Numbered from the stretch's first letter, positions 16,244 to 55,984 are shown. The stretch: DNA of 56,105 nt from Candidatus Curtissbacteria bacterium RIFCSPLOWO2_12_FULL_41_16 (GCA_001776545.1 MFBZ01000002.1:1-56105); one strand, 5' to 3'. Made by a program: numbers and translations. The notes: generated by a model not told the origin, from the sequence alone.

Positions 16244-16261
16244 CTGGTGAGGTTTCATAAA

Positions 16262-19204
16262 ATGCTCGGATTCTTAGGCCGTTTTTTAGATTCAAACGAA
16301 AAGCAAATTGCCAAGCTTCAACCCATTGTTGAGGCGGTAAATGGCCTTGAGAAAAACTTCCAAAAACTAACCGACGAAAAGCTTAAATCCAAAACCGCGG
16401 AGTTTAAATTGCGATGCCAGCGGAAAGAATCGCTTGACGATCTCCTGCCCGAAGCCTACGCGGCAGTTCGCGAAGCTTCAAGACGGACTTTGGGCCAGAG
16501 ACACTTTGACGTTCAAATCACGGCCGGCATCGTTCTTCATCAGGGCAAGATTGCCGAGCAAAAAACAGGCGAGGGAAAAACTCTAACCGCCTCTCTCCCT
16601 CTTTATTTGAACTCCCTTGCCGGTCGCGGGGTCCATCTTGCAACCGTTAACGACTATTTGGCTAGAATCGGTCTTGGCTGGATGGGGCCAATTTACAGCG
16701 CCCTTGGAGTTTCGGCTGGTTGCATCATGCATGAGCAGGCGTATATTTATGATCCAAAATATGAAGACAAGACCCAAACCGACTGGCGCTTAAGGCATCT
16801 TCGTCCGGTCGACAAAAAAGAGGCTTATGGCGTGGACATCACTTATGGGACCAATAACGAATTCGGCTTCGATTATTTACGCGATAATATGGTTTGGAAT
16901 CTTTCGGAGATGGCCCAACGCGGCCATCATTTTGTCATTGTCGATGAGGCGGACTCTATTCTTATTGATGAAGCCAGAACCCCCCTTATCATCTCCGCGC
17001 CCAGTTTTCAGGCCACCGACAAATATTACCAGTTCGCCAAGTTAGTTGAAGAGCTCTCCTCCGCCACCGATTATGTTATTGACGAAAAATTAAAGACAGC
17101 CAATCTTACCGAACACGGCATTAGAAAAGTCGAAAAACGTCTCGGCGTGGAAAATCTTTACGAAAAAGATTTTGCTGCGATCCATCACATTCAACAGGCG
17201 CTTCGCGCGAAAACGCTCTTTGCCAAAGATCGCGATTATGTCGTCAAAGACGGCGAGATAATCATAGTCGACGAATTCACGGGCAGGCTTATGCCCGGAC
17301 GCCGCTGGTCCGAAGGTCTTCACCAGGCGATTGAGGCCAAAGAAGGGGTAAAAATTGAACAGGAATCGCAGACTCTGGCTACAATTTCTTTTCAAAATTA
17401 TTTCCGCCTGTACGAAAAATTAGCCGGTATGACCGGAACTGCCGCCACGGAAGCCGAAGAATTCCACAAAATTTACAAGCTTGAAGTAATCGTTGTTCCG
17501 ACCCACAAACCGATGATTAGGGACAATATGCCGGACGTTGTTTATAAAACTGCCAAAGCAAAATTCACGGCAGTCGCGGTTGATGTGCAGGTCCGGCACC
17601 AAAAAGGCCAACCGGTTTTAATTGGCACTACCTCGATTGAAAAGAATGAATTTCTCTCGTCTCTTTTGAAAAGAAAAGGCATTCCCCACCAGGTTTTAAA
17701 TGCTAAAAATCATCAGAGGGAAGCGGAAATCATTTCCCAGGCCGGTCAGAAAAACGCGGTAACTTTAGCTACCAATATTGCCGGCCGCGGGGTCGACATT
17801 ATCTTAGGCGGTACTTCCCCGACGGACAAGCTTGGAAGACCCGAGACGGGAGGAGGCCAGTTTCAAAAATGGCAAAAAGATCACGATGAAGTAGTCGCGC
17901 TTGGCGGGCTGCACGTTGTTGGCACCGAAAGACACGAAGCCAGACGCATCGACAATCAACTCCGCGGTCGTTCGGGTCGTCAGGGCGACCCCGGTTCTTC
18001 CCGTTTTTATGTTTCTTTAGATGACGATATTATGCGGCTTTTCGGCGGTGAGGCAATTGCCAAAATTATGACCGCCTTCAAACTGCCGGAAGACACCCCC
18101 ATTGAACACTCAATGGTAGGTCATGCCATTGAAAATGCCCAGATTAAAGTGGAATCCCACAATTTCGATATCCGCAAGCACTTGGTTGAATACGATGACG
18201 TCGCCAATAAACAGAGAGAAATCATTTATGGAATGCGCCGTGATGTCCTGGAGGCTGCCCAGGATCAAAAGATGGCTCAAAAAATCAGAGAGGATATCCG
18301 GGCCAAAATTGATCGGGAGATCGAAAATCTCGTCATGATGCATGCACCCGAAGGTATTCAAAAACCTGAATATGAAAAAATTTTAAAAGAGCTTGCCGCC
18401 ATTATTCCCTTTGACGAGACTTCCCAGAAGAAATTACAAGAAGATTGCCAAAAAATCGAAAGTCCCCAAAAACTCGTCCAGTTTCTTAAAGGAGTCGTTG
18501 ACCAGGTTTACACAAACCGCCAGTCTGGTCTTGGCGAGGCGGTCGCCCGGGATATTGAAAAATTTTCGGCTCTTTCTGTTATCGATACTTTATGGATCGG
18601 GCATCTGGACTCACTTGATGATTTGCGTGATGGTATTGGACTTCGTGCCGCCGGCCAGCGCGATCCTTTAGTCGAATATAAGCAGGAAGCCTTTAACCTT
18701 TTCGAAAAATTAATATCCAGCATTGATTACGAAATAGTCCACCGCGTCTTCAAAGTTCAGATCCGCCAGGAACCGACCATTGAAAGAATCGAGGAGCAAG
18801 GGGTGGAAGTCCACCCGGAGGCGAAATTAACTTCCGATGATCAGCAATCAGCAGCAGATCAACAACACCTCCGAGGTGGAGGAATTGCCGCCGAAGGCGG
18901 CAAGGGACACCTCGGAGGTGAAGAGAAAGTTAGCGGTTTGGCGAAAGATCCCACGCAAATGTCCGACGAGGAACTCAACGCCGAAATCACCCGCCTCGAA
19001 GCTCTGGAAGCCCAAAAAGGTCAAATCTCCACCCCCGGGGTGGGCTTTGACTCCCCGGGGGTGAGCCCGTTCTCGCAGCCTATCAAAATCCCCAAAATCG
19101 GCCGCAACGACCCCTGCCCATGCGGAGCGATCAACCCACAAACCGGTAAGCCATACAAATATAAGAAGTGCGGAATGATCAATGCGCCACAGCATAAAGG
19201 ATGA
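16262..19204 (+). CDS. secA: preprotein translocase ATPase SecA with an extended C-terminal tail
   Basis: Canonical N-terminus MLGFLGRFLDSNEKQI at ATG 16262, preceded by GGTGAGG. Motifs KTGEGKTL and DEADSILIDEARTPLII, and C-terminal zinc finger CPCG...KKCG. The ORF track starts at GTG 16247. Confidence 0.95.
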   Translation: MLGFLGRFLDSNEKQIAKLQPIVEAVNGLEKNFQKLTDEKLKSKTAEFKLRCQRKESLDDLLPEAYAAVREASRRTLGQRHFDVQITAGIVLHQGKIAEQKTGEGKTLTASLPLYLNSLAGRGVHLATVNDYLARIGLGWMGPIYSALGVSAGCIMHEQAYIYDPKYEDKTQTDWRLRHLRPVDKKEAYGVDITYGTNNEFGFDYLRDNMVWNLSEMAQRGHHFVIVDEADSILIDEARTPLIISAPSFQATDKYYQFAKLVEELSSATDYVIDEKLKTANLTEHGIRKVEKRLGVENLYEKDFAAIHHIQQALRAKTLFAKDRDYVVKDGEIIIVDEFTGRLMPGRRWSEGLHQAIEAKEGVKIEQESQTLATISFQNYFRLYEKLAGMTGTAATEAEEFHKIYKLEVIVVPTHKPMIRDNMPDVVYKTAKAKFTAVAVDVQVRHQKGQPVLIGTTSIEKNEFLSSLLKRKGIPHQVLNAKNHQREAEIISQAGQKNAVTLATNIAGRGVDIILGGTSPTDKLGRPETGGGQFQKWQKDHDEVVALGGLHVVGTERHEARRIDNQLRGRSGRQGDPGSSRFYVSLDDDIMRLFGGEAIAKIMTAFKLPEDTPIEHSMVGHAIENAQIKVESHNFDIRKHLVEYDDVANKQREIIYGMRRDVLEAAQDQKMAQKIREDIRAKIDREIENLVMMHAPEGIQKPEYEKILKELAAIIPFDETSQKKLQEDCQKIESPQKLVQFLKGVVDQVYTNRQSGLGEAVARDIEKFSALSVIDTLWIGHLDSLDDLRDGIGLRAAGQRDPLVEYKQEAFNLFEKLISSIDYEIVHRVFKVQIRQEPTIERIEEQGVEVHPEAKLTSDDQQSAADQQHLRGGGIAAEGGKGHLGGEEKVSGLAKDPTQMSDEELNAEITRLEALEAQKGQISTPGVGFDSPGVSPFSQPIKIPKIGRNDPCPCGAINPQTGKPYKYKKCGMINAPQHKG
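18866..18920 (+). repeat. palindromic CACCTC-S-GAGGTG element pair inside the secA CDS
   Basis: CACCTCCGAGGTG (18866-18878) and its reverse complement CACCTCGGAGGTG (18908-18920) flank the inner hairpin TTGCCGCC-GAA-GGCGGCAA. Confidence 0.85.
19030..19064 (+). repeat. copy of the 35-nt palindromic element inside the secA CDS
   Basis: CACCCCCGGGGTGGGCTTTGACTCCCCGGGGGTGA is 30/35 identical to the intergenic copy at 32515-32549. Four of the five differences form two compensatory pairs. Confidence 0.85.
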
Positions 19205-20588
19205 TATTTTAAAATATAAATGGGTAGAGCCACAGGAACTTCTCGATAAGTGGTACGATTCACAATTGTCACTTTTTGCTCTTCATTCCACAAATAATCC
19301 ACTCCTTGAACTGATTGGTCAAAGAGAACTCAAATCACTGTGCCTGAATTTTAAATGGTATTACGATACTGAAGATTTAAAAGTTTGGTACAAAAATAAG
19401 GAAAAAGCCGTAAAGAACACCGCCTTAATAAATGAATTAAATATCAAGTCAAGAGAATATACACAAGAGGCAATAAAGTTAATAAGAAAACTTGAGAAAG
19501 CGAAAATGATAGACATAGATCTGATGGGGCAAGCCAGGAAAGTTTTAATCAACTTGTGGAATATTTTTATGATTGATTTAGGTAAATATATCGCTAAAGA
19601 AATCGATCTACGGCTTTCTAAACAAGGTTTTTCCAAAAACCAGATATCTCAAATTAAGAATTTATATTTTGAGAAAAATCCGAAACTAGCTTTTCAAAAG
19701 GGGGCAAAAGAGCTTGTGCTTATTGCAAATAAATATAAGAAAACAAAAGATAAAGACTGGCTTGAAAAGACAGTCGGACTATACCGGGATAAATATGCTT
19801 GGTTGTCTGTCAATGAGATAGATACCGAGCCTTTCACAGCCCAGGATTATCTAAAAGAAGTATTGGAGTTGATTAAAACAGATAGATTAACTAAGAAAAT
19901 GAAATCAACAGCTAAAAAGACTAGAGTAACGTTCAGTCTCAACCCTGAAAATAAGAAATATCTAGAGACCGTGTACCAGCACATATACCTGGATAATTAC
20001 GCTGCAGATTTATACGCCAGGCTCAATTATTTAGCGCAGGAGCTTATTCGTCAGCAATATGAACTGTCATTTAAAGATCAATCTTGGTATTCATTTGATG
20101 AACTTCAGAATTTAGTTAAAACTGGCACAAAACTTTTGTCGCAAGATATAGAAAAGCGTAAGAAACATCGTGTTATGGTCCAGATAAATAATAAGATAAA
20201 GGTATCTTATGACAGAAAAATATTCGATAATATATCTGGAAAAATCAGTAGTAGAAGCATAAAGAAACCAAGCCTTATTAAGGGTCAAACAGCCTGTATG
20301 GGATATGCAAAAGGGATTGTTAAAATAGTTTTAGGTGTTAAAGATATAGATAAAGTTAAGGAGGGGGATATATTGGTTGCGCAAACTACTCGCCCTGATC
20401 TTGTTATTGCGATGAGAAGATCAGCCGCAATTGTTACTGACAGTGGCGGTATAACTTCACATGCCGCAATAGTATCTCGAGAATTTGGAATACCTTGTAT
20501 TGTTGGCACCAATATTGCAACAATTGTTTTAAAAGATGGTGATTTGGTTAAAGTAGATGCTAATCGGGGAATTATAAGGATTATGTGA
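19182..20588 (+). CDS. PEP-utilizing enzyme mobile (swivelling phosphohistidine) domain protein
   Basis: 468 aa. The C-terminus GGITSHAAIVSREFGIPCIVGT is the PEP-utilizer His motif. The N-terminal ~370 aa are helical with no ATP-grasp motif recognised. Overlaps the secA end by 23 nt. Confidence 0.7.
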   Translation: MRHSIKDDILKYKWVEPQELLDKWYDSQLSLFALHSTNNPLLELIGQRELKSLCLNFKWYYDTEDLKVWYKNKEKAVKNTALINELNIKSREYTQEAIKLIRKLEKAKMIDIDLMGQARKVLINLWNIFMIDLGKYIAKEIDLRLSKQGFSKNQISQIKNLYFEKNPKLAFQKGAKELVLIANKYKKTKDKDWLEKTVGLYRDKYAWLSVNEIDTEPFTAQDYLKEVLELIKTDRLTKKMKSTAKKTRVTFSLNPENKKYLETVYQHIYLDNYAADLYARLNYLAQELIRQQYELSFKDQSWYSFDELQNLVKTGTKLLSQDIEKRKKHRVMVQINNKIKVSYDRKIFDNISGKISSRSIKKPSLIKGQTACMGYAKGIVKIVLGVKDIDKVKEGDILVAQTTRPDLVIAMRRSAAIVTDSGGITSHAAIVSREFGIPCIVGTNIATIVLKDGDLVKVDANRGIIRIM

Positions 20589-29743: not shown

Positions 29744-29752
29744 ATACGAGTA

Positions 29753-29816
29753 ACTACGAGGTCCGACCTGGTAATTGCCTGGTAATTGTAACAACCCCCA
29801 AAAGGGGTCGGACCCC
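29753..29816. repeat. REP-like hairpins with GGTC-S-GACC core plus a CCTGGTAATTG direct repeat
   Basis: ACTACGAGGTCCGACCTGG (29753-29771), CCTGGTAATTG x2 (29767-29788) and GGGGTCGGACCCC (29804-29816). Confidence 0.75.
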
Positions 29817-32176: not shown

Positions 32177-32503
32177 ATGATTTTAAAAATTGATACAACC
32201 AAAAGAGAAGAAGCCACGGTCGAGCTCAAAGATCCTAAAACCGGTAAAGCGGATAAACTAATCCAAAAACAAAAACTCGGCTCGCAAGTTCTTTTGCCAA
32301 TGATTGTCAAAATCTTAAAGAAAAACAAAGTGGATTTTAGCGATCTTTCGGCAATCGAAGTTAACCCCGGTCCGGGATCTTTTACCGGTACTCGCGTTGG
32401 AGTTGCCGTTGCCAACGCTCTCGGTTTTGCCTTAGACTTACCAGTAAATGGTCAAAAGGGTAAAATAGTTGTGCCCATATACGAAAAGTCAAAATTCGAT
32501 TAG
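32177..32503 (+). CDS. tsaB: TsaB-like protein, N-terminal half only
   Basis: 108 aa with the TsaB/YeaZ motif AIEVNPGPGSFTGTRVGVAVANALGFAL. It ends about where full-length TsaB continues for more than 100 further residues. Confidence 0.6.
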   Translation: MILKIDTTKREEATVELKDPKTGKADKLIQKQKLGSQVLLPMIVKILKKNKVDFSDLSAIEVNPGPGSFTGTRVGVAVANALGFALDLPVNGQKGKIVVPIYEKSKFD

Positions 32504-32514
32504 TCCACCAGTGT

Positions 32515-32549
32515 CACCTCCGAGGTGGGCTTTGACTCCTCGGAGGTGG
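32515..32549. repeat. 35-nt palindromic element (CACCTCCGAGGTG-GGCTTTGA-CTCCTCGGAGGTGG)
   Basis: 11-bp arms CACCTCCGAGG/CCTCGGAGGTG with a 12-nt loop. It lies 11 nt after the tsaB stop and is related to copies at 18866, 19030, 38177 and 53295. Confidence 0.85.
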
Positions 32550-32561
32550 AATAATTAGGCT

Positions 32562-33479
32562 ATGAGTAAAATCTTAGTCACCGGCGGAGCCGGTTTCATC
32601 GGATCATATGTCACAAAGTTACTTGCCGATTCCGGTCACAAAGTTGTCGTCTTGGATAACCTCTCTCACGGATTTGCCGAAAATATCGATCGTCGCGCAA
32701 AGTTTATTGCCGGTGACATTAAGGACAAGAACAAAACTAAAAAGGCACTGGAGGGGGTTGACGCAATTATCCACTTAGCCGGTTTAATCGTCGTCCCGGA
32801 ATCAGTCAGCGACCCGATTAAATACGCCGATAACAATGTTCTTGGCACAATCAATCTTCTCAATTGCGCCAATGAAACGGGTTGCAAAAAAATTATTTTC
32901 TCATCATCTGCCTGTGTTTATGGCACAGCGGATAAATTACCAATCACAGAAGATGCACCCGTCCGTCCGGACAATCCTTATGGGGCAACTAAAGCATCAA
33001 TTGAAGCGTTTTTACAAAGTTATCATGCGAACTTTGGTTTTGATGTCACAATTTTGCGCTACTTCAACCCTTACGGCCCCGGCAAATTGTATCCGCCGAT
33101 AACCCATGCCGTTCCCAATTTTGTAATGGCAACTTTGGCTAAAAAGCCCATCCCTCTTTATTGGCAGGGGAAGCAAATACGCGATTTTATTTATATTGAA
33201 GATTTAGCCCGTGCCCATATCGATGTTCTGAAATTGTCAGGTTTTAACGTTTTTAACATCGGCACCCAAAAGGGGATTAAGGTCAAAGATGTAGTTGACG
33301 AGATCTTTAAGATCGCAGGTTACAAAGTTCCCATAAATGATCTTGGCGCGCGCCCAGGCGACGTCCCCGCCAGCTTTGCCTCAAGCGCCAAACTGGCAAA
33401 AGCTGTCGGCTGGCGGGCCAAAGTCTCCCTCCCCGAAGGCCTCCGCCGCACCATCGACTACTACAGACAAAACCACTAA
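32562..33479 (+). CDS. NAD-dependent epimerase (UDP-glucose 4-epimerase-like)
   Basis: 305 aa with GGAGFIGS Rossmann motif and catalytic YGATK. Confidence 0.85.
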   Translation: MSKILVTGGAGFIGSYVTKLLADSGHKVVVLDNLSHGFAENIDRRAKFIAGDIKDKNKTKKALEGVDAIIHLAGLIVVPESVSDPIKYADNNVLGTINLLNCANETGCKKIIFSSSACVYGTADKLPITEDAPVRPDNPYGATKASIEAFLQSYHANFGFDVTILRYFNPYGPGKLYPPITHAVPNFVMATLAKKPIPLYWQGKQIRDFIYIEDLARAHIDVLKLSGFNVFNIGTQKGIKVKDVVDEIFKIAGYKVPINDLGARPGDVPASFASSAKLAKAVGWRAKVSLPEGLRRTIDYYRQNH

Positions 33480-33562
33480 CCAGATCCGCCTCCATAAAGG
33501 CACACCAAGTGACCCTTCTTGACCAAACCGCCTAGTCCTTCCGCTACACATTTTAAGCAACG

Positions 33563-34309
33563 AACTACGAGGTCCGACCTCGCAGTTACAGTAGTATAAT
33601 CAGATCATGCCTTCCAAACACTCAGTTAAATTATACATTGAGAACGGGATCTACCATGTTTACAACCGTGGTGTTGAAAAAAGAACTATCTTTCAAGATC
33701 ACGACTACAAAGTCTTCCTTCACTATTTGAAGCGCTATTTATCTGAGCCAAACAACGAGGTCGGACCTCGTTGGAAACTTCGGTGGAACCAAGGCCTCCA
33801 CGAGAAGTTGCATTTAATGGCATATTGCTTGATGCCGAATCATTTTCATCTGTTACTTAAACAGTTTTCAAAAGAAGCAATAACTACTCTCATGCGATGT
33901 CTTTCGAATTCGTACACCAAATATTTCAACGAAAAATATGATCGAGTAGGCCCCCTCTTCCAGGGGAAATTTAAGGCTGTTTTAGTTGAAAATGATAATT
34001 ATCTTTTGCACTTGACACGCTACATCCACCTGAATCCTATCAACCATCGAGAAAGTACTACGAGGTCCGACCTCGTAGTACTGGCAAAATTCAATTACTC
34101 AAGCTACGCCGATTACTTAGGAAAAAGGCATACTCAGTGGCTTAATGTTAAAGAGGTATTAAATTACTTCAATAACCCTACATCTCTCAATATCTATAAG
34201 AAACATTCGTATAAAGAATTCGTAGAAGATTTTGCTATTGATTCCGGTTCCGCACTTCAGGAACTAGTGATTGAATAGTAGCTACGAGAACTACGAGGTC
34301 CGACCTCGT
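33563..34309 (+). mobile_element. REP-RAYT unit: IS200-like tyrosine transposase gene flanked by and containing REP hairpins
   Basis: Hairpins at 33563-33587 (upstream), 33753-33773 and 34054-34082 (within the CDS) and 34293-34309 (downstream). All share ACGAGGTC-S-GACCTCGT, with CTAC/GTAG next to the stem. Confidence 0.8.
33607..34278 (+). CDS. REP-associated tyrosine transposase (RAYT, IS200/Y1 HUH family)
   Basis: 223 aa with YHVYNRG, HUH motif MPNHFHLLLKQ and catalytic Tyr block HLTRYIHLNP. Confidence 0.85.
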   Translation: MPSKHSVKLYIENGIYHVYNRGVEKRTIFQDHDYKVFLHYLKRYLSEPNNEVGPRWKLRWNQGLHEKLHLMAYCLMPNHFHLLLKQFSKEAITTLMRCLSNSYTKYFNEKYDRVGPLFQGKFKAVLVENDNYLLHLTRYIHLNPINHRESTTRSDLVVLAKFNYSSYADYLGKRHTQWLNVKEVLNYFNNPTSLNIYKKHSYKEFVEDFAIDSGSALQELVIE

Positions 34310-34331
34310 TGAAAACTCAAATTCTTACCGC

Positions 34332-38176: not shown

Positions 38177-38193
38177 TCCACCTCCGAGGTGGA
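38177..38193. repeat. single palindrome TCCACCTCCGAGGTGGA
   Basis: Perfect 8+1+8 palindrome of the CACCTC-S-GAGGTG family. Confidence 0.8.
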
Positions 38194-53142: not shown

Positions 53143-53238
53143 TTGAGGGTCGGACCCTCAAAAAAACTATAGCGACTGATCTTTTAAAGGGTCCGACCCT
53201 GAGGAAAAGTTTCTTGGCCTTTAAAAAGGTCCGACCTT
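53143..53238. repeat. cluster of three REP-like hairpins (GGTC-S-GACC core)
   Basis: TTGAGGGTCGGACCCTCAA (53143-53161), AGGGTCCGACCCT (53188-53200) and AAGGTCCGACCTT (53226-53238). GAGGAAAAG is repeated at 53131 and 53201. Confidence 0.8.
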
Positions 53239-53294: not shown

Positions 53295-53353
53295 CCACCT
53301 CCGAGGAGTCCCCTTCGACTTCGCTCAGGGCAAGCAAGCCCACCTCGGAGGTG
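53295..53353. repeat. palindromic element pair of the CACCTC-S-GAGGTG family
   Basis: CCACCTCCGAGG (53295-53306) and CACCTCGGAGGTG (53341-53353) are separated by 34 nt. Confidence 0.8.
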
Positions 53354-54722: not shown

Positions 54723-55037
54723 ATGTATTTTGTCTATCTTTTACAAAGTTTAAAAGACAACAAGTTTTATATTGGCCAAACAGAGAACGTCGTTCAGAGA
54801 TTAGCGATTCATAATTCTGGACAGGTCATATCGACAAAATCAAGGAGACCTTTCAGATTGGTTGGATATAAAACTTTTGATTTCCGGAATGAAGCACGTT
54901 GGTTTGAATATAACTTAAAAAATCACAGTGATAAAAAGAGAAAGTTTATAAATGAATTACGAAATAAAGGCCTCCGGCCACTCGGGTCTTGGAGAAAGGT
55001 CTCAGACCCGGAGGGCCTCCGGCCCGGAGGGAGGTGA
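54723..55037 (+). CDS. GIY-YIG domain protein (UPF0213/YhbQ-like)
   Basis: 104 aa with MYFVYLLQSLKDNKFYIGQTENVVQRLAIHNSG. The last ~25 codons are encoded by GC-rich palindromes. Confidence 0.8.
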   Translation: MYFVYLLQSLKDNKFYIGQTENVVQRLAIHNSGQVISTKSRRPFRLVGYKTFDFRNEARWFEYNLKNHSDKKRKFINELRNKGLRPLGSWRKVSDPEGLRPGGR

Positions 55038-55045
55038 AATAAAAA

Positions 55046-55984
55046 ATGGGAATAAACATAAATTCAAAAATCCTTTTGTCAGTCGCATCAATTGCTGCAG
55101 CAGCGGCTTTAATAGTCGGCGCAACTGTAGCCTTTTTTAGCGACACCGAGACATCAACCGGCAACACATTCGCCGCTGGCGAACTCGATCTTTTGGTAGA
55201 CAGCGAATGTCACTACTACCGAGTTGATACCAATCCAAGTCCATCACCATCACCAAGGTTACCGGGTTATGTAGATGTAGGTTGTGGAAACAATGGGACT
55301 TGGACAGAATCAGATCTTGTTCCAGGAGTCCACAAGTTCTTTAACTTTAACGATGTGAAACCTGGAGACAGAGGAGAGGATACAATCAGTCTCCATGTTG
55401 TAGACAACGATGCATGGGCATGGTTCTCGGTTACTGAAGAAGGGGACAGCGATGTCACTTGTACAGAGCCGGAAACTGAAAGTACTGATCCACAATGTGT
55501 TAATGCATCACCAGGCCCAAGCCTTACAGACGGTGAACTTCAAGAAGCTCTGGACTTTAATGTTTGGTTAGATCAAGGAGTAAAACCTGGCTTCCAAGGG
55601 AAAAGCAACGATGTAGGCGAAGGTGACAATATCTTTAATCAGGGTGATATCCAATTAGCTACGCCAGGGCCAATCGATGATCCGTCAGAACAATACAACC
55701 TTTGGCAGATTTTAGCAGGTGTGAGAGCAGGCCTAAATACAGCCTGTGATGGAGCTGACGACGATCCAGATGGTGACGGAGTAACAGCAGGCGCAGTTGG
55801 TCTTTGTCAAGGTTTACCAGACGACGGTCATCTAGTTGGAAGCACGACCTACTACTTTGGTGTAGGTTGGGAATTGCCTAGCGATACGGGTAACGAAGTT
55901 CAATCCGACAGTTTCGTGGCGGATATGGAGTTTAAGGTAGAACAATACCGCAATAACCCAAGTCCAAGCCCGTTCCCGATTTAG
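55046..55984 (+). CDS. TasA/camelysin (M73)-family protein with SipW-type signal peptide
   Basis: 312 aa, SD GGAGGTG 9 nt upstream. N-terminus KILLSVASIAAAAALIVGATVAFFSDTETSTGNTFAAGELDL, NDVKPGD block, and C-terminal QSDSFVADMEFKVEQ. Confidence 0.8.
   Translation: MGININSKILLSVASIAAAAALIVGATVAFFSDTETSTGNTFAAGELDLLVDSECHYYRVDTNPSPSPSPRLPGYVDVGCGNNGTWTESDLVPGVHKFFNFNDVKPGDRGEDTISLHVVDNDAWAWFSVTEEGDSDVTCTEPETESTDPQCVNASPGPSLTDGELQEALDFNVWLDQGVKPGFQGKSNDVGEGDNIFNQGDIQLATPGPIDDPSEQYNLWQILAGVRAGLNTACDGADDDPDGDGVTAGAVGLCQGLPDDGHLVGSTTYYFGVGWELPSDTGNEVQSDSFVADMEFKVEQYRNNPSPSPFPI

Follow-up and report, generated by a model that had tools for sequence, protein, structure and literature searches.

The SecA gene of Candidatus Curtissbacteria bacterium RIFCSPLOWO2_12_FULL_41_16, a member of the Microgenomates within the candidate phyla radiation (CPR), carries short G+C-rich palindromes in frame in the segment coding for its C-terminal tail. 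Their analysis in a stretch of 56,105 nucleotides (GCA_001776545.1, MFBZ01000002.1:1-56105; henceforth the 56-kb window) leads us to regard them, with a probability of about 0.78 that also covers the mechanism proposed below, as small non-autonomous mobile elements of the kind formed by repetitive extragenic palindromes (REPs) and their hairpin-forming inverted doublets (REPINs), belonging to a Microgenomates partnership between REPs and REP-associated tyrosine transposases (RAYTs). The evidence comes from the window itself, from relatives in which the same family occupies many unrelated genes, from orthologous SecA genes and from a RAYT-like gene about 15 kb downstream of SecA, which together with its flanking sister palindromes was absent from an earlier sequence-only reading of this DNA.

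SecA is encoded on the + strand by an open reading frame (ORF) of 985 codons (16247-19204), identified by its translation and homologs; its probable start is the ATG at 16262, which yields the 980-residue database product P0001. The homologs of this protein are all SecA proteins of Candidatus Curtissbacteria/Patescibacteria, the top non-self match being 79-80% identical. The tail holds two members of what we term family A, defined by CACCTC-S-GAGGTG (also CACCYC-N-GRGGTG), a doublet being two inverted 13-nt arms around a spacer. Element 1 (18866-18920, + strand), supported by its sequence, fold and orthologs, is a REPIN-like doublet of 55 nt whose arms, CACCTCCGAGGTG (18866-18878) and CACCTCGGAGGTG (18908-18920), are exact reverse complements (13/13) around a 29-nt spacer, which itself contains a nested palindrome, TTGCCGCC-GAA-GGCGGCAA (18885-18903). 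The sequence-only reading had described it correctly as a 55-nt nested inverted repeat in the SecA frame, where it reads HLRGGGIAAEGGKGHLGGE; as RNA it folds at -42 kcal/mol (z = -9.1). Element 2 (19030-19063, + strand) is a variant doublet of 34 nt, CACCCCCGGGGTG-GGCTTTGA-CTCCCCGGGGGTG, with a perfect 11-bp stem around the 8-nt spacer GGCTTTGA and an RNA fold of -28.4 kcal/mol (z = -2.8), and its translation, which uses the other permitted frame, gives (S)TPGVGFDSPGV. It had been given as a 35-nt copy, of which the hairpin and the peptide TPGVGFDSPGV stand, but base 19064 lies outside the hairpin; similarly, the palindromes counted there as three copies are present, but they are better taken as two doublets, that is, four arms, two of them exact and two C/G variants. 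In an AlphaFold2 model built with 48 homologs, P0001 shows low-confidence coils (predicted local distance difference test <50) at residues 847-896 and 918-945, with a helix at 902-918 between them; element 1 (residues 869-887) falls inside the first coil and element 2 (residues 923-935) inside the second, which places both in a predicted disordered linker between the SecA body and the zinc finger.

These two elements belong to a dispersed and strongly over-represented family. At up to one mismatch, CACCTCSGAGGTG has 7 matches in the window against 0.01 expected, while CACCYCNGRGGTG identifies 10 family-A arms against 0.22 expected, an excess over chance in keeping with the dispersed family that the sequence-only reading had proposed; more broadly, 6-N-6 palindromes number 49 against ~14 expected, with family A and the family B described below dominating. 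Four of the six family-A sites in the window are intergenic, all given on the + strand: a doublet at 32515-32548, a singlet CACCTCCGAGGTG at 38179-38191, a doublet between divergent genes at 53296-53353 (copies at 53296 and 53341, one arm with 1 mismatch, a 32-nt spacer and a fold of -31.3 kcal/mol, z = -4.6) and a degenerate singlet CACCCCTGTGGTG in a spacer at 2537-2549. The first of these, which lies 12 nt past the stop of a TsaB/TsaD-family fragment and 14 nt ahead of the ATG of an NAD-dependent epimerase gene (fold -24.5 kcal/mol, z = -4.8), has the same spacer, GGCTTTGA, as element 2. The 30/35 identity of element 2 to 32515-32549 and the two compensatory pairs in the 11-bp stem, both reported earlier, are indeed found: the five differences comprise two T-A to C-G pair swaps (positions 5/30 and 9/26), which account for four of them, and one flanking base. 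An Rfam scan of the whole window returned one tRNA as its sole match, with no curated RNA family for the elements.

The arms of family A are also Shine-Dalgarno (SD)/anti-SD cores, and the SD-like GGAGGTG previously noted within the SecA ORF is present. At the intergenic doublet, the 3' arm gives GGAGGTG 14 nt before the epimerase ATG (32536-32562), and the hairpin at 32515-32548 would pair it with the anti-SD-like CACCTCC arm; at intergenic copies this likeness may be a coincidence or may have an effect on expression. The neighboring 108-aa TsaD/TsaB-family ORF (32177-32503), which covers model positions 30-84 of 264 and ends 12 nt before the doublet, represents a gene that has been truncated or else a TsaB-like protein of minimal size.

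Beyond this genome, an exact-match scan of a single genome from each species for pairs of family-A arms separated by 6-36 nt recovered at least 130 doublets in at least 120 loci; counts over 130 doublets below are among the matches listed. The loci listed come almost entirely from the Microgenomates—Curtiss-, Davies-, Roizman-, Beckwith-, Gottesman-, Woese-, Levy- and Shapirobacteria and WWE3—and the few matches in high-GC organisms resemble unrelated tandem coding repeats. Several loci (L010-L012, L016, L021, L025, L028, L056 and others) are titled "uncultured Gammaproteobacteria" or "Pseudomonadales" at ~40% GC; we judge these labels of metagenome-assembled genomes to be wrong, because their host proteins are 75-81% identical to Daviesbacteria proteins that carry the same element at the same site. 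No family-A doublets were found in viral contigs. In the sample, which was ascertained on doublets, 254 of the 271 exact arms in relatives belong to doublets, with C..G arrangements more numerous than G..C ones (94:17); a further 17 exact arms occur in 856 kb of the relatives against 0.007 expected.

It is in their relation to genes that these elements are most distinctive. Among the 130 doublets, 107 (82%) lie in open frames of at least 150 aa, compared with 83% of random positions, so that the predominantly extragenic location typical of REPINs is not seen for family A in the relatives. The description of the SecA palindromes as intergenic-type elements that otherwise live in spacers consequently holds within the window but fails among relatives, where most copies are intragenic. 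Confirmed housekeeping hosts include UvrD, TopA, PurL, UvrB, DinB, GatA, RarA/MgsA and RadA. The coding copies use the HLRGE...HLGG[EV] frame in 57 cases and the xTSEV...TSEV frame in 46, and only 4 use the third (PPRRC/PPRW); the distance between their arms is divisible by 3 in 88/107 cases, as against 8/23 for non-coding copies. This frame bias and three-base periodicity point to an element that acts at the DNA level and is filtered by translation, and argue against a protein motif and against an insert that is bypassed or spliced.

Individual loci add some texture to this pattern. At one TopA site two close relatives differ, the element being present in L111 and L095 having a 13-aa gap at the same place; at another TopA site, elements are present in three genera and are read in two frames. 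Within the same topoisomerase I loop (L111 and L095 versus L065), the Daviesbacteria copies have a spacer of 23 and the HLRGE frame, whereas the Woesebacteria copy has a spacer of 11 and the TSEV frame; this sharing of a loop means either that a single site, tolerated or targeted, was struck independently or that one element took the place of another. A UvrD-like helicase gene with a family-A doublet (L056:118-3156, - strand) also encodes an intein (Pfam Intein_splicing, residues 480-649), and hence combines two types of selfish insert, both in frame.

The SecA insertions themselves can be dated, in relative terms, from the orthologs. Across the 120 closest SecA clusters, HLRGE-type footprints number 13 in the tail against 1 in the ~830-aa body, and TSEV/TPGV-type footprints 7 against 0; they occur at two sites, on either side of the conserved helix KDPxEMTDEELDAEIARLEALE, with some proteins occupied at both. 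Site 1 is occupied in all 6 orthologs for which DNA was compared (L121-L126): the arms of L122 are identical to those of the window at 26/26 positions, those of L123 and L124 are CACCTTCGAGGTG / CACCTCGAAGGTG, those of L126 are CACCCCGGGGGTG / CACCCCCGGGGTG, those of L125 show one mismatch and those of L121 have decayed to 11/13, while the spacers, 23 nt in the orthologs versus 29 nt in the window, are unrelated. Site 2 reads CACCCCTGGGGTG-GGCTTTGA-CACCCCAGGGGTG in L121, with a T/A center pair and the same spacer as in the window; it is occupied in L123 (spacer 20), decayed in L124 and absent in L122. The window SecA is 73-80% identical to these orthologs, yet four-fold sites are only 34-42% identical and thus essentially saturated. 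Given occupation of the same two tail positions on this background, the insertions are old, and a recent insertion, one of the two options offered by the sequence-only reading, is not supported.

The arms have nevertheless remained paired over this span, so that the earlier picture of a palindromic family residing in frame in a tolerant linker, with its stems kept by compensatory changes, is borne out by the ortholog alignment. In L122, L123, L124 and L126 they are complementary at 13/13 positions, with double-sided changes at pairs 5, 6, 7 and 9; the change in L123/L124 spoils the self-palindrome of the 13-mer and keeps the arm-to-arm pairing, which implies that the maintained unit is the long hairpin. 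The SecA copy of L121 has the W-centered form CACCCC-W-GGGGTG, as do two copies unlinked to it in that genome (2829/2864 and 13234/13268). Judging by these sequences, arm variants appear to be genome-specific in this one relative, where unlinked copies are comparable, and the shared variant suggests re-copying or conversion within the genome instead of independent compensation site by site.

Two features at the 3' end of SecA lie beside these elements. Close Curtissbacteria orthologs have one or the other of two forms of the metal-binding domain: a canonical one, CPCGSGLKWKKCG, which matches Pfam SEC-C, and the variant CPCGAINPQTGKPYKYKKCG of the window (19105-19204), with a loop 7 aa longer and no SEC-C match. 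The forms are distributed mosaically relative to overall identity, a pattern that hints at recombination within the SecA tail. Moreover, the gene 3' of SecA in the window (19182-20588), which has a C-terminal PEP-utilizing enzyme mobile domain, overlaps the end of SecA by 23 nt, while in L121, L124 and L125 a YkuD gene comes next after SecA, placing a synteny break exactly at the SecA 3' end.

A candidate agent of mobility is found in the same window. The gene at 33607-34278 (+ strand) encodes a 223-aa RAYT-like Y1 HUH transposase, recognized by Pfam, NCBIfam, a PDB profile and its motifs: YHVYNRG, NHFHLLL (HUH) and RYIHLNP (with the catalytic Tyr). It matches Pfam Y1_Tnp at 35.5 bits against a cutoff of 23. 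Around it clusters a second palindrome family, B, defined by RGGTC-S-GACCY (sister palindrome GAGGTC-S-GACCTC), with 9 cores in the window against 0.06 expected and a conserved CTAC directly 5' of the stem, equivalent on the opposite strand to a 3' GTAG. Four family-B copies, all on the + strand, crowd into 33560-34310. One, gaaCTACGAGGTCCGACCTCG (33562-33582), lies 25 nt upstream of the transposase start and another, gaaCTACGAGGTCCGACCTCGT (34288-34309), 10 nt downstream of its stop in the same orientation; two more are in frame inside the gene, at 33753-33773 (read NNEVGPRW) and at 34054-34082 (AGTACTACGAGGTCCGACCTCGTAGTACT, read STTRSDLVVL; fold -21.7 kcal/mol, z = -6.3). A RAYT gene thus bracketed by REPs is the layout of a REPtron. 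Family B, like family A, also forms intergenic doublets on the + strand: one at 29752-29816 (aaCTACGAGGTCCGACCT ... GGGGTCGGACCCC) and one in 53146-53238 (AGGGTCGGACCCT-N29-AGGGTCCGACCCT), the latter (53146-53200; fold -29.5 kcal/mol, z = -5.3) having the same 13+29+13 geometry as element 1 and being followed by a singlet at 53227-53237.

The association recurs elsewhere, and in places it involves family A itself. Six loci recovered by the family-A pattern hold RAYT homologs of 34-41% identity, every one of them flanked by a palindrome of its own, which in L090 (Shapirobacteria) and L098 (WWE3) is CACCTC-S-GAGGTG, present on both sides of the gene. A metagenome scan with a RAYT alignment supplied the 80 closest further homologs, 59 of them with both flanks available, and in 16 of these 59 the same G+C-rich 5-N-5 core, mostly AGGTC-n-GACCT, stands on both sides. 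Family-A arms lie beside only one of the 80 (L200), which ties the clade of the window RAYT to family-B-like palindromes and not to family A.

As a separate observation, RAYT-like genes of this clade (L127-L206) carry in-frame G+C-rich palindromes within their own ORFs. These are seen in 28 of 76 ORFs and cluster at two positions, one ~77-89 aa ahead of the catalytic Tyr motif and the other ~9-20 aa beyond it; the internal palindrome belongs to the REP family flanking the same gene, and its sequence varies between genomes (AGGTC-S-GACCT, GGGTC-S-GACCC, AGGCC-W-GGCCT, GGGCC-W-GGCCC, AGGAG-W-CTCCT and GGGAG-W-CTCCC cores). At the first site, ORFs with and without a perfect palindrome do not differ in length, a result that fails to confirm simple insertion, and the internal palindromes may therefore not be simple insertions; they could reflect autoregulation or concerted evolution.

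Taken in this light, the SecA palindromes may be accounted for as follows. A Y1 HUH tyrosine transposase, the RAYT, would recognize the folded hairpin on single-stranded DNA and copy it to new sites, which in gene-dense genomes of ~1 Mb would mostly be coding. The copies that survive would be those that keep the frame, in one of the two harmless readings (HLRGE...HLGGE or TSEV/TPGV...), and that lie in loops or linkers. The long, disordered SecA linker would on this account have been colonized at two sites, with the copies presumably read as extra Gly/Pro/Ser-rich peptide. The arms would be kept complementary since it is the hairpin that serves the element as its functional unit, whether by selection on transposability, by conversion to the genome's master sequence or by both. 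SecA itself does not seem to need the hairpin structure, and there appears to be no sign of a SecA-specific function.

A number of observations weigh against this account. The window RAYT scores 44.7 bits against its best NCBIfam match, REP_Tyr_transpos, under the curated cutoff of 80, and a profile of 6 RAYT homologs reaches the IS200/IS605 TnpA (2xm3, E = 0.005) and the E. coli TnpArep (4er8, E = 0.016) only as weak matches, the single sequence having retrieved nothing relevant from the PDB. No RAYT flanked by family A occurs within the window, where the sole RAYT has family-B flanks. Family A also lacks the GTAG tag of classical REPs, its flanks being merely A/T-biased, and the CTAC of family B is 5' in place of a GTAG. 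Copy density is modest, at ~1 exact arm per 11 kb in the window and ~1 per 50 kb in the relatives outside the ascertained sites. The canonical doublet lengths of 37, 40, 43, 49 and 55 nt are all 1 mod 3, so that an exact arm-to-arm cut-and-paste would shift the frame. Neither a clean empty site nor a target duplication was found, the TopA presence/absence site included; the flanks of 129 elements show no consistent direct repeat, the sole bias being against G at -1 and C at +1. Finally, four metagenome DNA runs, searched as contigs only, hold the same SecA allele with no excision or insertion polymorphism, apparent joints in the contigs being the SecA genes of other species.

Some of the same evidence might be read differently. 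The palindromes could be domesticated genome-wide sites, used as binding sites for nucleoid, topology or repair proteins or as uptake or recognition signals, with the RAYT a mere maintainer and the SecA copies ordinary members instead of selfish DNA. Arm conservation far above the neutral expectation would sit well with this, as would the status of RAYTs as domesticated single-copy genes (PMC5581495), the enrichment of genes for DNA replication and repair among the hosts, a trend also reported for intragenic REPs, and the recurrent positions of cognate REPs inside RAYT genes. Yet the copies show no positional regularity along the window, their density is modest, their arm sequence differs between genomes and they decay in some lineages, while the only candidate binding protein found is the RAYT itself; we therefore consider it unlikely.

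Still less probable is a structure in RNA or DNA selected by the host for a role specific to SecA, the other option of the sequence-only reading, by which the hairpin, its SD/anti-SD look-alike arms (GGAGGUG / CACCUCC) sequestered in the stem, would for example cause translation to pause or be attenuated ahead of the zinc finger, or would stabilize the 3' message. The great stability of the element 1 hairpin (-42 kcal/mol, z = -9.1), the nature of its arms as SD and anti-SD core sequences and their conservation and compensation in orthologs despite saturated synonymous divergence are what such a role would predict, but identical arms, compensated in like manner, are found in UvrD, TopA, PurL, UvrB and other unrelated genes, in two frames, and in spacers. 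Furthermore, the position in the tail varies by species (site 1, site 2 or both), and the elements are decayed or absent in L121 (site 1), L124 (site 2), P0033, P0039 and P0044. That the SecA copy of L121 shares its arm variant with the other copies of that genome also counts against selection specific to SecA and indicates maintenance at the level of the element or by concerted change.

Template switching during replication can yield double-sided, seemingly compensatory changes without any selection, and the palindromes could in principle have been generated locally in this way in a linker under low constraint, with no mobile element involved; the palindrome nested within the element 1 spacer indeed looks locally generated. 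We think this very improbable as an origin, in that the identical 13-mer, and even the identical 8-nt spacer, recurs at unlinked loci, in other genes and in other genera, and the family is associated with RAYT genes, but template switching may contribute to keeping the arms matched. Least credible of all is selection of the HLRGE/TPGV peptides for a function of the SecA tail with DNA palindromy as a by-product: the peptides do recur in the tails of several orthologs, but a protein-level motif is contradicted by the reading of the same DNA in two frames, in different proteins and within SecA (element 1 versus element 2), and by the untranslated copies in spacers, and the third codon positions of the arms are invariant where four-fold sites elsewhere are saturated, the arms covarying as base pairs and not as codons.

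The preferred reading, that of REPIN-type elements, also finds support in comparison with known systems. With REPIN-RAYT systems the present elements share short G+C-rich palindromes in inverted doublets, a variable spacer, compensated hairpins, a repeat-flanked Y1 HUH transposase gene, a genome-specific repeat sequence and long vertical persistence. However, classical REPINs are overwhelmingly extragenic, number hundreds of copies and belong to Proteobacteria, whereas those described here are mostly intragenic and in frame, are modest in copy number and have a CPR host; family A is also without the 5' GTAG tag, and the RAYT is distant from characterized ones and under the NCBIfam cutoff. Such systems are reportedly also to be credited to Nunvar 2010 and Ton-Hoang/Messing 2012. 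A REPIN is defined as two inverted REPs with a less conserved spacer, a predicted hairpin and an association with a RAYT (PMC3116915, PMC5581495), and compensatory changes across its hairpin are common (PMC3116915, Bertels & Rainey 2011). Intragenic copies have precedents too: Di Nocera et al. 2013 (PMC3733652) report REPs and REP dimers (GTAG/CGTC) wholly within ORFs, adding ~20-30 amino acids, often in DNA replication and repair genes, and argue that they occupy flexible linkers or loops. The intragenic members there are a minority of their family and here the majority, arms and host taxa differ, and three-base periodicity, frame bias and orthologous covariation, found here, do not appear to figure in their description.

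A parallel might also be drawn with inserts of other origins. The Rickettsia palindromic elements (RPEs; Ogata et al. 2000, 2002, cited through PMC10969869) are in-frame in many unrelated, functional and often essential genes of a reduced genome and are translated as an extra peptide compatible with the protein fold; they measure ~100-150 bp, and no transposase is known for them. The present elements likewise are in-frame palindromic repeats in many unrelated functional genes, but they are 34-61 nt long, consist of two 13-nt arms unrelated in sequence to RPEs and are linked to RAYTs, making this an analogy and not membership. The Y1 HUH fold and motifs are shared with the IS200/IS605 TnpA (through the 2xm3 and 4er8 profile matches), and recognition of a subterminal hairpin is the presumed mechanism, although the present transposase gene does not belong to a multi-copy insertion sequence, the mobile units being the hairpins alone. 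The target-site duplication that marks miniature inverted-repeat transposable elements was not seen. Mitochondrial byp elements (Magnusiomyces) and GC-cluster palindromes are, like the present elements, short G+C-rich palindromic mobile inserts in protein-coding genes, and byps are skipped by the ribosome. As in the T4 gene 60 type of bypass, the length and frame of byps are unconstrained and stop codons are tolerated, whereas the periodicity and frame bias of the present coding copies imply read-through; ribosomal bypass, or removal at the RNA level, is accordingly disfavored, all the more as one frame is nearly unused. Metatranscriptome runs yielded no match to the sequence.

Outside the two families, overlapping G+C-rich palindromes (CGGAGG-G-CCTCCG and CTCCGG-C-CCGGAG) follow GGTCTCAGACC at 54990-55035, just upstream of the ORF at 55046, and fit neither A nor B.

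The SecA case alone is of a known kind. What sets the system apart from known REPIN-RAYT systems is the frame-filtered intragenic habit in streamlined genomes, the long-lived orthologous copies that appear to track a genome master and the REPs inside the RAYT. Neither a mainly intragenic habit nor cognate REPs placed recurrently at two points within the RAYT gene appear to have been described before, and among the papers searched none has the family-A motif and none links RAYT or REPIN with CPR bacteria. A wider proposal, to which we would give a little less than an even chance, is that the REPIN-RAYT system of the Microgenomates has moved into coding sequence, with its elements existing mostly as loops, translated in two frames, of housekeeping proteins such as SecA, TopA, UvrD, UvrB and PurL, persisting at orthologous sites past synonymous saturation and being re-matched to the genome master, and with the two internal REPs of the RAYT as a possible sensor or autoregulator.

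If true, this would represent a REPIN lifestyle so far undescribed, and it would offer a candidate transposase-based mechanism for protein-coding palindromes, something that has been lacking since the Rickettsia RPEs. REP-RAYT systems would be placed in ultra-small genomes supposed to be poor in mobile elements, where with scarce intergenic space they would have become in-frame, frame-biased and linker-seeking. The compensated orthologous copies and the REPs inside the RAYT would then provide handles on how REPINs are maintained and on the role of the RAYT. Extra loops in SecA and other CPR housekeeping proteins might thus be seen as footprints of mobile hairpins and not necessarily as lineage-specific protein innovations; such elements may mislead the alignment, phylogeny and domain annotation of CPR proteins and, by the same token, may be usable as lineage markers.

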